Sequence record: MT446389.1
Direction: 5' to 3' (one strand)
DNA: 45,305 bases
From: Escherichia virus TH11
Shown: positions 3,709-44,594 of the stretch, one piece after another
Numbering within the stretch: position 1 is the first letter of the stretch
How the letters are laid out: the number at the start of each line of letters is the position of its first letter
The notes under the pieces: generated by a model
Seen by the model: the letters and a program-made list of their open reading frames with translations, nothing else
Database searches by the model: none
Told to the model about the DNA's origin: nothing
Program-made: the position numbers and the translations under genes

Positions 3709-3917
3709 TTAGACAAGTATTCATGAGCACGCAGGCTGACCGCCTGAAGGAATTACGCAAACAACTCGAAGGCTTGCGCCGATTCGAACGAACGGCAGCG
3801 GCTATAGGCATGTCTATCAGCGAGCGGATCGAGATACTATCGCAAATACGCTACACAGAAGGCGCTATAAGCGAAGTAGAAAGCATGTTAACCCGATACT
3901 ACGGTCGCCCCGTTTAA
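3705..3917 (+). CDS. hypothetical protein
   Basis: 70-aa ORF, start overlaps upstream stop. Confidence 0.4.
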   Translation: MIRQVFMSTQADRLKELRKQLEGLRRFERTAAAIGMSISERIEILSQIRYTEGAISEVESMLTRYYGRPV

Positions 3918-26438: not shown

Positions 26439-26448
26439 TGCAACCAAT
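26439..26448. promoter_or_regulatory. TGCAACCAAT motif between divergent lipoprotein and tail fiber genes
   Basis: Motif with -35-like TTGCAT on minus strand and TACTAA about 18 nt downstream, pointing at lipoprotein gene. Confidence 0.4.
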
Positions 26449-40388: not shown

Positions 40389-40418
40389 TAAAAAGAGGCC
40401 CGCTAATATGCGGGCCGG
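40389..40418 (-). terminator. intra-operon terminator/attenuator on minus strand
   Basis: ggcccgc-taatat-gcgggcc followed by CTTTTT on the minus strand. Confidence 0.45.
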
Positions 40419-40554: not shown

Positions 40555-41073
40555 TTAGTCTTCCAGTTCGAAATAAGTCTCGACGATTTCTTTTAAATCT
40601 TTGTGGAAGTCTTCGACGTCGTCGTCTTCCAGCTTGGCGATTGATTTGATCTCGAACGCTTCCAGCAGGTCGTCAAATTCGTCGTTAGCATCGTCGTCAT
40701 CGCCACCGGCGATAATCGCGGCGTACTGCTTGATCTCGTCGCGCATCTCTGCCAGCGGATCGGCATCTTTCTTCCCTTTGCCTTTCGCCGGAGCTTTTTT
40801 ACCCTTCGCCGGTTTTTCGTCTTCGGCTTCTTCATCGTCGTCATCTTCTACGACTTCTTTTTTGGCCTTACCTTTAGCCGGGGATTTTTTAGATTTAGCC
40901 GGTTTTTCGTCTTCGGCGTCATCGTCGTCATCTTCGACAACTTCTTTTTTGGCCTTAGACGGCTTCTTATCTTCCTGTTTACCAACGGCAGCGCCAACGG
41001 TTTCATAATGCTTTGCAATGGTTTCCAGTGCTACTACGCCGCGAGTGATCAGGTTTACGATTTGCTCAAACAT
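40555..41073 (-). CDS. charged tandem-repeat protein, candidate DNA mimic or nucleoid-associated factor
   Basis: 172 aa from internal ATG with RBS GGAGAT; two in-frame repeats KKEVVEDDDD..EDEKPAK.KK.PAKGK; first gene of leftward early operon. Confidence 0.55.
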   Translation of the reverse strand: MFEQIVNLITRGVVALETIAKHYETVGAAVGKQEDKKPSKAKKEVVEDDDDDAEDEKPAKSKKSPAKGKAKKEVVEDDDDEEAEDEKPAKGKKAPAKGKGKKDADPLAEMRDEIKQYAAIIAGGDDDDANDEFDDLLEAFEIKSIAKLEDDDVEDFHKDLKEIVETYFELED

Positions 41074-41269
41074 GGTATATCTCCGATTGGTTAAGTTTAG
41101 GTGTCGGCAGTTAACTTCGTCGCTGGCCTTAACATATTGCCAGGTTACGCGTTCTCCCGTTCGGGTAGTGGACCTGGTTATATAATCACGGTTGGGAATC
41201 CTGACACTTCGATCCGGCCCCTGCGTTGCCCCTCTCCAGTTTGCGTCCTGCATCCTGTCGACGGAGTGA

Positions 41270-41299
41270 ATGATAGATTGGTTGCAGGATAGGTGTCAA
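41270..41299 (-). promoter_or_regulatory. candidate early leftward promoter with operator-like motif in spacer
   Basis: Minus strand TTGACA, 18-nt spacer containing TGCAACCAAT, TATCAT. Confidence 0.4.
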
Positions 41300-41310
41300 C
41301 AACTAATTTC

Positions 41311-41346
41311 AAAAAAAAAGCGCCGAGGCAAAATGCGACGGCGCTA
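41311..41346 (-). terminator. rho-independent terminator on minus strand
   Basis: 7-bp stem AGCGCCG/CGGCGCT followed on minus strand by nine T. Confidence 0.45.
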
Positions 41347-41368
41347 ACCAATAAGAGACAATGAGACG
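41311..41368 (-). ncRNA. candidate short leftward transcript (about 58 nt)
   Basis: Minus-strand TTGAAA, 16 nt, TAATAA promoter about 60 nt upstream of the terminator; no ORF. Confidence 0.25.
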
Positions 41369-41415
41369 AGAATTATTATTACACGCGTGCGCGCCCGTTT
41401 CAATATCCAAAGGAT

Positions 41416-41444
41416 TTGACACCGTGCAGTTTTGGGTGTAGTTT
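41416..41444 (+). promoter_or_regulatory. candidate rightward sigma70-like promoter
   Basis: Perfect -35 TTGACA at 41416-41421, 17-nt spacer, weak -10 TAGTTT, upstream of gene at 41476. Confidence 0.4.
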
Positions 41445-41475
41445 CGTTGGTCATTAACCAACTGAGGGCAGAGCA

Positions 41476-41805
41476 ATGAATGTAAACGACGCAATCGAAA
41501 TGTTAACGAAGACTGTTTGCAGTGAGACAAGCCGGTCGTGGGCATACACCGATGCCGTGGGGGCTGTGTTATTTGAAATCGAACGACTGCGGCTTACCGA
41601 AAAAGAATTGCGCGCCAGGCTGGAACTACTCAACGGTACAGCAGCAAGCAAGCTGCAAAAACACAATGAAGAAATGGAAGAATACAAAAAGCAGGTTATC
41701 CGTTTGCGCGCCGAGGGTAAATCATGGGCGATGATTGCCGAGTTGACCGGGATTAATCAGAGCACAGTGCGCTCCTGGGTACGCAATAATAAAACTTCTA
41801 AGTAA
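41476..41805 (+). CDS. HTH DNA-binding regulator
   Basis: 109 aa; C-terminal KSWAMIAELTGINQSTVRSWV is a helix-turn-helix; first gene of rightward operon. Confidence 0.55.
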   Translation: MNVNDAIEMLTKTVCSETSRSWAYTDAVGAVLFEIERLRLTEKELRARLELLNGTAASKLQKHNEEMEEYKKQVIRLRAEGKSWAMIAELTGINQSTVRSWVRNNKTSK

Positions 41806-41815
41806 GGCCACGGCA

Positions 41816-44080
41816 ATGAGCTTGATTAAATTCGCTGTAACAAAACCCGCTAAAAAAGGCGAAAAAGCCAGGGCGGAAAACTTCCAGATGACGACCGATG
41901 AGTTTTTCGAATTTATCAAAGATGCGAAAGAAATCTCCTCGGTGCATATCAACAAGACGGAAGATAAAGCCGAGTATGCGCGCCGCAAGCGTAAGGCCGA
42001 TGGCATCGTGGCGTATACCAGTGACGGATTGCGTCGTAAGACCAGTGCGGTGGACCGCTCGATCCTGTTCTTTGATATTGACCGCACCGACACCCGCACC
42101 CTGCGCCGCTGCCGTAAGGCGTTCATCGACGCGGGACTGGAACATGTATTTCACACCACAACCGGCGACCGCCACCCGCTGAAAGGTGGCACGCGTTGCG
42201 CTCGTTTCCTGGTGCTCACCGACAAGCCTGTACCGGCGGAAGACCTAGGCCGCGTACAGTATGCACTGTTACACCAACTGGGCCTGTCAGATGTGGACTT
42301 CGATGATTGTACGAAAGACACAAACCGCCTTATGTACCTACCACACCAGCAGTCCGTTGTTAAGTGTCACTACGGCAAACGTGCCCGCGTCCGTCGTCTG
42401 CTTCGCCTGGCGGATAAGCTGGGAGTGGAAAAAGAGGAAGTACGACGCGAACTGACCCAGGGCGATGACGGCGTGGCTGACGGTATTCTGGATTGGTGCT
42501 TCCAGGCGGGATTCGAACCGCTGTCGTCCGGTCGTGGTTATGAAGTGCCATGCCCGAACGAACACCTGCACAGTGGTGAAGGGTCCACCGCTATCATGGT
42601 TAAGGATGGCGAGATCCGTTTCAAGTGTATGCATACCGGCAACGAGTGTTGCTCGGAGCTGAACAGACACCAGCACCTGGCGCTACGTCTTATCGGGATC
42701 CCGGACCACCTGAACGTCGAACCGCACAACATGTCACGTAAGCAAATCGCCGCCATCCTTCCAGGACTGGACGACGAGGAAGTGGAATCGTGCTATGCGC
42801 ATATCGTTGATGCGGTCGGAGACGGCGACGAGTACGGCGGATGTACAGATGCAGACCTGGACAACGAGCCGGTTGCGCTGTTCAGTAAGCACGACCCGAT
42901 CATCGAGGGGCTGATTAACTTCAAATCGACCTGGTATCTTGCTGGCGAGTCGAACATCGGTAAATCGTTCTACGTGCTGGGCCAGATGGCGTCAGTATCT
43001 GCCGGTATTCCGTTCGGCGGCGCGAAGGTCGTCCAGTGCCACAACTTCTATTTCGACGCGGAAGGTGGTGAAGCCTCCAACCAGCGTAAGGAAGCATTGC
43101 AGATCAAATATGAGCACGACCTGGACAAGCTGCACATTATCGATCTGCAGTCACGCGGCTGGGATATCACCAGCAAATCCGGCTTGCGTGAAGTTATCAG
43201 CTTTATCAACCGCACCGCTAACGGCGAGCCGGTTGGCCTGGTGGCGTTCGACTCACTCAACCAGACTGTCGCGTTGCGGTCAGCCGATGCTAAACCGTTC
43301 GACGAGAACAACGCCAGCGATATGGGCGAAGTGGTCAAAGCGCTGAAGGCTATTGCGGAAAACACAGGCGGCAGTGCGGGAGTCATCCACCACCCGGCGA
43401 AAGGTGCAAACGGCAGCAGATCTCCCCGCGGGTCCGGCGCGCTGCATGGTGCTGTCGATTCCGCGTTCTTCCTGGAGCAACCGGACGACAATCAGCCGGG
43501 CCAATTGAACCTGTACCATGAGAAGGCACGTAACGGCATCAAGCAAGCGCCGCGCGGCTTCGTCCTGCTTAAGTGCAAGGTTAAGGTGGATCTCCGCAAG
43601 TCAGAGGCGTTCGAATCGCACCAGTCCACCAGCACCGGGCCTGACTTCGGTGATGTGGTTGCAGGATGGGACGTCAAGCCGATCGCATCAACGCCACGCG
43701 ACGAGACTCTTTACCTCGTACCTGTCGCCCTGGCACCGTTCGCTATTGAGCAGGCGAAGGCCGCGGGTAAGGCAGCAGTTAAGGAAGAGAACCCCGCAGG
43801 ACCGCGCAACGAAAAAGAGAAAGTGCTTTATGCGGCGCTGGAAAAACTGATGGAAGATAACCCGGACCATACCGGATTCAGTAAATCGGCAATCGTCCGC
43901 CAGGCTGGACTTGCGAAAGGTGGCACATCGACGAAGGCAATAGACGATATGGTCGAGCGCGGCGTGCTCGGTTTCTATACAGATCCGCACACCGGGGCCA
44001 TCTATGGGTCATCGAATATCGTCATCAAAACGAATATACCCATCACGCTTTCGGCGACCGATGATGATTTAAAAGATTAA
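41816..44080 (+). CDS. bifunctional primase-polymerase / helicase
   Basis: N-terminal AEP-like FFDIDRTD, Cys/His zinc cluster, C-terminal Walker A AGESNIGKS and Walker B LVAFDSL. Confidence 0.8.
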   Translation: MSLIKFAVTKPAKKGEKARAENFQMTTDEFFEFIKDAKEISSVHINKTEDKAEYARRKRKADGIVAYTSDGLRRKTSAVDRSILFFDIDRTDTRTLRRCRKAFIDAGLEHVFHTTTGDRHPLKGGTRCARFLVLTDKPVPAEDLGRVQYALLHQLGLSDVDFDDCTKDTNRLMYLPHQQSVVKCHYGKRARVRRLLRLADKLGVEKEEVRRELTQGDDGVADGILDWCFQAGFEPLSSGRGYEVPCPNEHLHSGEGSTAIMVKDGEIRFKCMHTGNECCSELNRHQHLALRLIGIPDHLNVEPHNMSRKQIAAILPGLDDEEVESCYAHIVDAVGDGDEYGGCTDADLDNEPVALFSKHDPIIEGLINFKSTWYLAGESNIGKSFYVLGQMASVSAGIPFGGAKVVQCHNFYFDAEGGEASNQRKEALQIKYEHDLDKLHIIDLQSRGWDITSKSGLREVISFINRTANGEPVGLVAFDSLNQTVALRSADAKPFDENNASDMGEVVKALKAIAENTGGSAGVIHHPAKGANGSRSPRGSGALHGAVDSAFFLEQPDDNQPGQLNLYHEKARNGIKQAPRGFVLLKCKVKVDLRKSEAFESHQSTSTGPDFGDVVAGWDVKPIASTPRDETLYLVPVALAPFAIEQAKAAGKAAVKEENPAGPRNEKEKVLYAALEKLMEDNPDHTGFSKSAIVRQAGLAKGGTSTKAIDDMVERGVLGFYTDPHTGAIYGSSNIVIKTNIPITLSATDDDLKD

Positions 44081-44155
44081 ATTTTGCGCGCATTGGTTGC
44101 CGATATGGGAATTCCCATATCGCTAGAAGATTAAATTTTGCGCGCATTGGTTGCC
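44073..44155. repeat. direct repeat - palindrome - direct repeat element
   Basis: 29-bp direct repeat at 44073-44101 and 44127-44155 flanking perfect 20-bp palindrome gatatgggaattcccatatc at 44102-44121. Confidence 0.7.
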
Positions 44156-44213
44156 ATTTTGAGTGTTTTTATCTGGTCGTATTGGTTGCCGTGTAGTGTA
44201 AATATAGTGAATA

Positions 44214-44402
44214 GTTATGCAGTTTTATTGCATAAAGTAAGCGGGACAAAAAGCGGGACAAACAAGGGGCGGGACAAAGCGGGACAGCACCCCTGTCCCA
44301 CCCCGGATGACGCGGCCTGGAGAGGAGCGGGACAGGCGGGACAACCCCCAGTCTTTCAGACTAGACGGGGGGTCAATGGCCCCCCTCGTCTGAGACTGAA
44401 TA
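44214..44402. repeat. GCGGGACAAA repeat array copy 3 with terminal stem-loop
   Basis: Paralogue of 15565-15735 with a few substitutions; preceded by AT-rich stretch; hairpin at 44350-44398. Confidence 0.7.
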
Positions 44403-44543
44403 AAATCCGGGGATTGCAAAATACACGGCAGCATGATGCGAAGTGCGGTCGAGGATGAACTAGGCAACCAATGCGAGATGCATTATGCTGAGTGAAAAAT
44501 GCAGTTTGCAGTCACAGCAGATAGCGATCAACTTTTTCATGCG

Positions 44544-44594
44544 CATGTTTGATATTGGTTGCATTCAACCCGGCACCTGGCTATATTGGTTGCG
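44544..44594. promoter_or_regulatory. ATTGGTTGC motif pair upstream of gene at 44616
   Basis: ATTGGTTGCA at 44544-44553 and ATTGGTTGC at 44584-44592; reverse-orientation copy near 44466. Confidence 0.4.

Follow-up and report, generated by a model that had tools for sequence, protein, structure and literature searches.

How is early transcription organized in the divergent gap of about 402 base pairs (bp) that lies at positions 41074-41475 of Escherichia virus TH11, between the leftward gene for an acidic protein and the rightward gene for a helix-turn-helix (HTH) protein, and does this gap hold anything besides promoters? The stretch analyzed, hereafter the window, comprises 45,305 nucleotides (nt) of sequence record MT446389.1, numbered from its first letter. 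An earlier note, made from the letters alone, had described the gap as a divergent early control region with candidate promoters and a terminator, and had taken 41100-41270 for empty spacer. The coordinates of the gap and the opposed operons are as claimed there, but the supposed spacer holds a highly conserved, structured RNA. That is, the ~160 nt at 41262-41103 on the minus strand appear to be a non-coding leader RNA, not described previously, at the very start of the transcript of the leftward early promoter (P_L) and ahead of the start codon at 41073. We favor, at a rough probability of 0.6, an explanation in which the gap is a control region of four units. A rightward promoter (P_R) would drive the HTH and primase-helicase genes, with an inverted repeat over its predicted start; a leftward promoter (41403-41375) and a terminator (41345-41311) would form a self-contained unit for an RNA of ~58 nt; P_L would drive the leftward early operon; and the first 160 nt of the P_L transcript would fold into six or seven helices, the closing one of which joins the extreme 5' end of the transcript to a stretch ~30 nt upstream of the start codon. 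The leader RNA would then be a portable module that acts in cis on the early transcript, presumably through a host component common to Enterobacteriaceae.

A leader sequence shared by otherwise unrelated phages

The 2 kilobases (kb) around the gap are 100% identical to those of Escherichia virus TH13 and 90-99% identical to those of ~175 other records, nearly all of them from Dhillonvirus, i.e., the HK578/SO-1-like virulent siphoviruses. A sensitive blastn search with the gap showed, in addition, that intergenic regions of unrelated phages contain sequence 77-94% identical to the segment at about 41146-41251. Within Dhillonvirus, 87 records share a 136-nt core of the leader at 99% identity or more; the 2 kb around it are mostly less conserved (90-95% identity in 128 of the 175 records). 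By the same kind of search, 171 of 50,697 phage records carry the leader RNA, including slyngel, KMI8, PHB17, Motto and others among the Drexlerviridae, Lumpael (Murrayvirus), Arya (Jilinvirus), IME279 and sortkaff (Sortsnevirus), and the unclassified phages BUCT618, HeidiAbel_Bas97 and Serratia MQ-4. This distribution shows that the RNA has spread horizontally among unrelated, virulent siphoviruses of enterobacteria. Such strong conservation across unrelated phages suggests contact with something that is itself conserved in enteric bacteria. Three of the records bear the host labels Pseudomonas (Motto, ON843697.1), Acinetobacter (NJ01, OQ221563.1) and Campylobacter (A144, MG065648.1); their sequence is of Drexlerviridae or Dhillonvirus origin and 86-100% identical to the leader RNA of the window, and these labels look doubtful.

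The position of the element is constant, too. At each of the 10 loci fetched from unrelated phages (10/10), it lies in a 200-270-bp gap within co-directional genes and in the same orientation, and this constant orientation relative to the genes makes the minus strand of the window the relevant one. A TAnnnT box (TATAGT, CATAAT, TATTAT, TATCAT, TAGTAT and others) stands 6-8 nt upstream of the closing helix, termed P0 here, in every lineage; the -35 regions and operator-like repeats farther upstream are completely different among lineages, and several lineages have a terminator just upstream of the RNA. The leader RNA occurs once per genome and ends 20-50 nt before the next ribosome-binding site, from which it is separated by an A/C-rich linker. 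The linker of the window (41074-41102, minus strand) is unstructured, leads from the RNA to the ATG at 41073 and carries the Shine-Dalgarno (SD) sequence GGAG at 41084-41081. No homology between lineages was found among the first genes downstream, whose functions are unassigned; therefore, the RNA is associated with the promoter and the transcript's 5' terminus rather than with any given gene. As for the variable upstream parts, a palindrome TTTAC-N4-GTAAA lies ~15-30 nt upstream of the -10 box in L025, L028, L029 and L034, with TTTAA-N4-TTAAA in Arya, and the half-sites, which change together, suggest a lineage-specific operator on the promoter of the leader RNA.

Some close relatives do without the RNA. 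In the Dhillonviruses L006, L008 (phage Sloth), L009, L015, LM40P1 and L017, the core is replaced by a tiny hairpin (GGGC-AUACC-GCCC or GUCG-AAA-CGAC); these genomes still have P_L and the initial transcribed nucleotides as well as the linker and ribosome-binding site. Since a small hairpin can stand in its place, the RNA is an accessory, dispensable module; in Dhillonvirus, it looks as if the complex RNA had been inserted into a hairpin at the 5' end.

The predicted fold of the leader RNA and its support

Alignment with MAFFT revealed a series of invariant blocks (GGAGAGG.GC.ACGC.GGGGC, GGAUUCC.AACCGUGA, CACU, AGAACGC and CGACGAAG) with compensatory stems between them, and ~80 nucleotides, i.e., about half of the leader RNA, do not vary among phage families without any other common DNA. 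RNAalifold proposed 33 pairs, 11 of them with double changes, and P0 was added by eye to this structure. On the minus strand of the window, the predicted fold comprises P0 (41262-41256 with 41109-41103), hairpin P1 with a GGA loop (41255-41239), P2 (41232-41228 with 41127-41122), P3/P3a (41226-41188), P4 (41185-41180 with 41135-41129; tentative), P5 (41177-41172 with 41145-41140) and hairpin P6 (41168-41154), with a three-way junction to which GGAGAG and CGACGAAG contribute strands. In P0, the earliest nucleotides downstream of the -10 box are paired with the segment immediately 3' of CGACGAAG; the helix begins 1-4 nt past the predicted start in every lineage, while its sequence is lineage-specific (GUCGACA/UGCCGAC, GGGCG/CGCCC, GACGGG/CCUGUC, GACGGGC/GCCCGUC, GGGCGGCG/CGCCGCCC and GGCAG/CUGCC).

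The evidence for this fold is mainly covariation. Among 40 distinct sequences, standard pairs occupy 95.3% of the pair cells vs. 31-44% when the partners are slid by 1-3 columns, and 20 of the 37 predicted pairs show changes on both sides; the covariation score of 0.398, compared to at most 0.092 in the slid controls, was reached by none of 500 shuffles. One P5 pair alternates between A-U, U-A and C-G even among near-identical Dhillonviruses. A covariance model built on this fold has a single match in the window (41270-41101, minus strand, 141.5 bits) and scores 142-196 bits at 49 other loci. The TH13 copy is the lowest-scoring of the family; position 41123 is G in this copy and C in all 17 other distinct aligned Dhillonvirus sequences, which makes the P2 pair 41231:41123 a G.G instead of a G-C. 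For P4, support comes from a change of CGA:UCG to CAG:CUG and from a coordinated replacement in the TH13 type, with an uncertain register. Pairwise column covariation, assessed for extra helices and pseudoknots, is too confounded by two large clades and supports only the central P4 pair along with a possible 102:125 pairing.

A few points weigh against the explanation favored here. The placement of helix P4 is tentative, the leader RNA is no more stable than shuffled sequence (z = 0.09), and the literature gave no transcript, start-site or functional data for these phages, i.e., all starts given here are predicted.

Alternatively, the conserved element might act as DNA, serving as an origin or single-strand initiation structure, or might be a selfish, mobile insert. 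It adjoins replication genes in several lineages (the primase-helicase gene here, a primase gene in Arya and HeidiAbel and a helicase gene in MQ-4), it was seemingly inserted in the loop of a pre-existing hairpin in the Dhillonviruses, and its near-identity across genomes could mean recent spread. However, the element always runs along transcription, at the constant distances from the -10-like box and the ribosome-binding site given above, and G-U pairs are retained on the transcribed strand only. Further, the compensatory changes within the genus show selection on structure, no transposase or endonuclease accompanies the element, and the viability of relatives without it excludes an essential origin. 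We regard a role at the DNA level as very improbable.

One further likeness within the gap concerns the invariant AGGAUUCCCAACCGUG of the RNA (41187-41202), which resembles the -35 region of P_R on the opposite strand (AGGATTTGACACCGTG, 41411-41426) at 12 of 16 positions; this may be chance.

Searches for relatives and coding potential

No known family accounts for the leader RNA. Rfam 15 gave no match at E <= 10 with lax filters, either for 2.5 kb or for the element alone in two lineages. ARAGORN detected no cloverleaf in the element, which disposes of a transfer RNA (tRNA) or tRNA-like identity, and no tRNA or transfer-messenger RNA in the window. Searches of 5,426 E. coli genomes and of 72,556 plasmids revealed no copy of the leader RNA. 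Genomes and metagenomes were also scanned with exact patterns, followed by the covariance model on the matches. Among 185,579 bacterial and archaeal species genomes, this procedure yielded 47 matches, one of which was real by the covariance model and the rest chance, the real one being a phage-sized contig binned in a metagenome-assembled genome (MAG); the metagenome scan yielded 15 loci, all of already known types. A 42.8-kb contig of a 'Cereibacter sphaeroides' MAG (L079, QFQS01000013.1) carries the leader RNA at 185.7 bits between flanks that closely resemble Klebsiella phage IME279, and it is probably a Sortsnevirus-like phage genome that was mis-binned. We found no paper on this leader RNA or on transcription in Dhillonvirus.

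A protein-coding reading of the element was rejected as well. The longer open reading frame (ORF) from 41253, in frame with the first leftward gene, of 232 amino acids (aa) and corresponding to the annotation of phage McMelon, is interrupted by frameshifts and stop codons in L003, L007 and L116. Annotated proteins do overlap the element in public records: McMelon has an N-terminally extended protein of 229 aa (L002 3004-3693) and a 50-aa coding sequence (3749-3901) over the RNA or the promoters, HeidiAbel has the gene Bas97_0052 on the leader RNA (L029 2448-2567), and the annotated C-terminus of the PHB17 methyltransferase (L021 2549-3307) runs into it.

What the leader RNA might do

The put RNAs of phage HK022 cause read-through of downstream terminators via the beta' zinc-binding domain of RNA polymerase. 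Like putL and putR, the leader RNA would stand at the very start of a phage early-left transcript, just downstream of the early promoter (the start sites being predicted), and terminators lie inside the operon in both systems; here, the strong one ahead of the recombination genes would be in keeping with antitermination. The put RNA measures ~73 nt and forms two stem-loops in a V shape, with putL first paired at +3 of the early-left transcript, and it acts independently of downstream genes and requires only the host RNA polymerase (PMC9378689). A similar role, in which the leader RNA makes RNA polymerase resist termination or pausing, is conceivable by analogy, and we hold it to be less likely than not, though the likeliest of the single mechanisms considered here. 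The leader RNA differs from put in size and fold (~160 nt, six or seven helices and a three-way junction), its carriers are virulent, non-lambdoid siphoviruses, and blastn against the 50,697 phage records showed no similarity to HK022 putL or putR, with no lambdoid phage among the matches listed. Also speaking against such a role, Dhillonviruses without the RNA retain the intrinsic terminator that lies within the leftward operon at 40389-40416 (minus strand), ~705 nt beyond the leader RNA. More generally, this terminator occurs in all Dhillonviruses examined, and the idea that the leader RNA is tied to it was dropped, since it is present with and without the RNA.

A simpler role would be protection of the 5' end from RNase E, or enhancement of translation. 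Stem-loops at the 5' terminus stabilize bacterial and phage messenger RNAs (mRNAs), e.g., through the ompA 5' untranslated region (UTR). The leader RNA likewise pairs its 5' end within 1-4 nt of the predicted start, and the core-less Dhillonviruses have a plain hairpin at exactly the same position. However, stabilizers of the ompA type need just a simple hairpin, and the complex fold with its ~80 invariant nucleotides goes far beyond that; since relatives make do with a plain hairpin, a simple stabilizer would leave these nucleotides unexplained. We consider protection or translational enhancement a weak candidate for the function of this RNA.

The pattern of invariant junction and loop nucleotides surrounded by covarying peripheral stems is also reminiscent of riboswitch aptamers, which share with the leader RNA the location in a 5' UTR (here 20-50 nt upstream of the ribosome-binding site), a conserved multi-helix junction (here three-way) and a core backed by covariation. 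Under this alternative, the core would bind a small molecule, such as a nucleotide second messenger or a defense signal, and the formation of P0 would set downstream expression. Unlike known riboswitches, the leader RNA belongs to no Rfam class by the search described above and has no expression platform, i.e., no terminator follows the element and inspection revealed no SD-sequestering helix conserved across lineages; in addition, the downstream genes are unrelated and of unassigned function, which leaves no coherent function to be regulated. A riboswitch appears improbable to us. An alternative pairing of the 3' strand of P0 as anti-SD was evaluated by inspection and discarded as inconsistent across lineages.

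Could the RNA instead act in trans? A stand-alone non-coding RNA might be cleaved from the transcript within the A/C-rich linker, at a UUAAC-type site, and serve as a decoy or sponge for a host protein, such as CsrA or an antiviral sensor. The RNA is accessory, occurs once per genome and would be one of the earliest segments transcribed, its early promoter being near-consensus, and a (U)UAA(A)C motif follows P0 by 5-12 nt in most lineages. Further, GGA is invariably present in the loop of P1 (CAGGAUG, CAAGGAU or CAGGACG) above a covarying stem, and it is followed after 10-13 nt by another GGA, an arrangement that resembles CsrA sites. The CsrB repeat, CAGGA(U/C/A)G, matches this P1 loop, and CsrA bound at the 5' end of the flhDC leader blocks RNase E. 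CsrB/RsmZ and the flhDC leader share with the leader RNA a GGA in a covarying hairpin loop near the 5' end, with a second GGA close by. They differ in that the leader RNA has just two or three GGA and most of its core is GGA-free, so that CsrA sites would cover a small part of the invariant core. Neither a terminator nor a proven processing site is associated with the RNA, and no similarity to a host RNA was found among the E. coli genomes searched. We view a trans-acting decoy as unlikely.

Finally, the leader RNA might be the first representative of a new class of phage RNAs, complex in fold, that directly reprogram a host machine, a speculative idea to which we give clearly less than even odds. 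Such a class could take the form of a put-like, RNA-only antiterminator in virulent coliphages, or of a sensor or decoy directed against host immunity or global regulation, and it would move among phage families as a portable, promoter-proximal cassette.

Promoters and terminator of the gap

The leader RNA would be transcribed from P_L (41299-41270, minus strand), which combines TTGACA at 41299-41294 with TATCAT at 41275-41270 across an 18-nt spacer, matches 11 of the 12 consensus positions and has a predicted start near 41263. The promoter assigned to the short RNA (41403-41375, minus strand) has TTGAAA at 41403-41398, a 17-nt spacer and an extended TGt-AATAAT at 41380-41375, i.e., 10 of 12 matches plus the TG of an extended -10. 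Candidate P_R (41416-41444, plus strand) consists of TTGACA at 41416-41421 and TAGTTT at 41439-41444, 17 nt apart; its -35 is perfect, and the promoter scanner missed it because the weak -10 matches just 3 of 6 positions. All three thus have the two hexamers with a 16-18-nt spacer of sigma-70 promoters. P_R and the short-RNA promoter stand back to back, with -35 boxes 12 bp apart. The number of promoter-like sites in the gap is in itself not significant (3 vs. 1.6 +/- 1.4 expected); the two leftward promoters represent the two top scores in the 19 kb scanned, P_L being the best.

Conservation was assessed in an alignment of 17 distinct Dhillonvirus versions of 41255-41500. The hexamers are either unchanged or replaced by promoter-like ones (e.g., TTGACA-18-TATCAT by TTGACT-17-TAATAT), and the -35 boxes of P_R and of the short-RNA promoter are invariant. 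At the position of the short-RNA promoter, the divergent L017 has TTGCGC-17-TATTAT. Upstream of P_L, a predicted intrinsic terminator (minus strand; hairpin 41345-41319, U9 tract 41319-41311) reaches -16.7 kcal/mol (41345-41311; z = -2.45, with 4 of 200 shuffles folding equally well). Its stem has undergone compensatory changes in L015 and LM40P1, from GCGCCG/CGGCGC to CCCCG/CGGGG, and L017 has a different terminator at the same place.

The conserved hexamers, the compensatory changes in the terminator and the replacements in L017 confirm what had been observed from the letters alone. The P_L -35 with the repeated motif (below) in its spacer, the third promoter with its TTGAAA box, and the terminator are all where the earlier note had put them. 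For the rightward promoter, the proposed TTGACA is borne out by its invariance, while the -10 that should accompany it is weak. This conservation supports both leftward promoters and the terminator as functional, and the promoter-terminator unit of the short RNA appears, from its sequence, to be under selection. The same three promoters are also annotated in HK578 (JQ086375.1) and the terminator in CS16, both computationally and from consensus. Being real, conserved and already annotated elsewhere, these features are ordinary, yet their layout is useful for annotating and engineering these phages.

An inverted repeat, TTGGT-CATTA-ACCAA (41447-41461), spans the predicted start site of P_R and is conserved in all aligned Dhillonvirus variants except the recombinant HK578. 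We consider it a candidate operator or, alternatively, a candidate 5' hairpin of the HTH mRNA.

The short RNA and its possible targets

The short RNA deduced from this promoter and terminator (41368-41311, minus strand, ~58 nt) would start with an unpaired, pyrimidine-rich 5' part (UCGUCUCAUUGUCUCUUAUUGGUUA) and end in the terminator. A promoter of its own and a Rho-independent terminator ending in a U tail delimit the unit, and in L015, LM40P1 and L017 these are either conserved or compensated; in L017, the unit as a whole (promoter, ~25 unpaired nt and terminator; RNA of ~58-65 nt) is kept with a different sequence. A ~58-nt RNA, as proposed earlier, is therefore plausible, and we are fairly confident that it is made. 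Its other proposed reading, as an attenuated leader, is unlikely, because the strong P_L lies downstream of the terminator and because the terminator has a nine-U tail.

Within the short RNA, a 10-nt segment, CUCAUUGUCU, is conserved between TH13 and L017 despite diverged flanks. The terminator-adjacent UCUCUUAUUGGUUA is complementary to UAACCAAUCGGAGA, which holds the SD of the first P_L gene, the complementary stretch of the linker being 41093-41080. In TH13, the duplex between the short RNA and this ribosome-binding site reaches -15.9 kcal/mol (p = 0.0045 against shuffled seeds); L017 forms its own duplex with different sequences on both sides (CGGACUCCUGAA and UUUAGGAGUACG; -18.4, p = 0.004), while the cross-lineage combinations of TH13 and L017 are weak (-10.2 and -6.3). 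The only further divergent lineage available for this pairing test was LM40P1, of the L015 type. It is tempting to propose, with more doubt than confidence, that the short RNA is regulatory and that its terminator-adjacent region pairs with, and represses, the ribosome-binding site of the first P_L gene.

Several results count against this proposal. The ribosome-binding site of the first gene ranks 21st of 180 in the window, and that of the HTH gene pairs as well (-17.9); the L015/LM40P1 type keeps just a 7-8-nt anti-SD match; and in TH13, two inverted occurrences of the AACCAAT DNA motif contribute part of the complementarity. When targets were sought across the whole genome, the best match of the short RNA was no better than that of shuffled seeds (p = 0.23). 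Seed matches at start codons (CAAUGAG at the primase-helicase gene and at the 44616 ORF, AGACAAUG at the 40376 gene) were considered and set aside as near chance. The 7-mer CAATGAG has 5 sites in the window, about as many as expected by chance, and the 10-mer with up to 2 mismatches shows a modest excess (38 vs. 27.9 expected).

The main rival explanation is that the unit at 41403-41311 works without any function of its RNA, either by insulation or by competing for RNA polymerase, with a promoter placed back to back with P_R and a terminator that shields P_L from leftward transcription arriving from upstream. The 12-bp distance between the -35 boxes, the location of the terminator directly upstream of the P_L -35 and the lack of genome-wide significance in the target prediction are all in line with this explanation. 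It would not account for the conservation of CUCAUUGUCU between lineages with diverged flanks, nor for a complementarity to the neighboring ribosome-binding site that is lineage-specific. We deem a purely DNA- or polymerase-level role of the unit possible, though on the whole doubtful.

The predicted short RNA has parallels in other phages: c4 of P1/P7, sar of P22 and oop of lambda are terminated RNAs of 60-80 nt from phage control regions. Like c4, the 58-nt RNA has complementarity to the ribosome-binding site of a neighboring operon that it does not overlap. It differs from c4, sar and oop in coming from a virulent phage and in having its own promoter, as opposed to being processed from a longer transcript, and its pairing with a predicted target is imperfect and not kept in every lineage.

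A repeated DNA motif, the HTH protein and neighboring genes

The spacer of P_L contains one copy of the motif TGCAACCAAT (41286-41277, minus strand), and ATTGGTTGCA in this spacer is invariant across the Dhillonvirus alignment; L017 has two copies of the motif there. Genome-wide, TGCAACCAAT has 19 sites with at most 1 mismatch vs. 3.45 expected, a number reached by none of 100 shuffles. The sites are often in tandem, 12-23 bp apart, and in or next to promoter-like sequence (2371/2394, 9824/9837, 29783/29795 and 31447/31464); further sites are at 26439 and 45103, and a cluster is at 44092-44594. The motif may be a phage-specific promoter or operator element. The 41447-41461 inverted repeat is related to TGCAACCAAT and lies on the predicted start of the promoter of the HTH gene, which makes the 109-aa HTH protein a reasonable candidate for the regulator of the motif-bearing promoters. 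The HTH predicted earlier in this protein (gene at 41476-41805, plus strand) was found by Pfam at its C-terminus, where residues 65-105 match HTH_23 (2.3e-7), HTH_28 and Sigma70_r4_2.

The rightward operon comprises this gene and the gene for a 754-aa primase-helicase with an AAA_25 domain. The latter is followed by a pair of 32-nt direct repeats at 44070-44101 and 44124-44155, which are 97% identical and both end in ATTGGTTGCC, with more copies of GGCAACCAAT nearby and GCGGGACAA four times at 44234-44287; the region 44070-44594 looks like an iteron or origin-type region.

On the other side of the gap, the leftward early operon encodes the acidic repeat protein, small ORFs and a DUF2800/PD-(D/E)XK exonuclease. 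Its first gene (40555-41073, minus strand, ATG at 41073-41071) specifies a 172-aa product of phrog_3127 that is very acidic and has tandem KKEVVEDDDD..EDEKPAK repeats; a repeat region is annotated at this gene in phage welsh, and the number of repeats varies among relatives. The strong terminator at 40389-40416, which consists of GGCCCGC..GCGGGCC and a U-rich tail, separates the first two genes from the recombination genes, which have no obvious promoter of their own.

Implications

Dhillonviruses and T1-like phages are workhorses of phage-defense research and of phage therapy collections, and the leader RNA is unannotated, or mis-annotated as protein, in ~170 GenBank genomes. Otherwise near-identical phages that naturally have or lack the RNA are available, which makes its role directly testable. 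If identified, the partner of this RNA could reveal a new, RNA-only control of transcription, mRNA decay or immunity.

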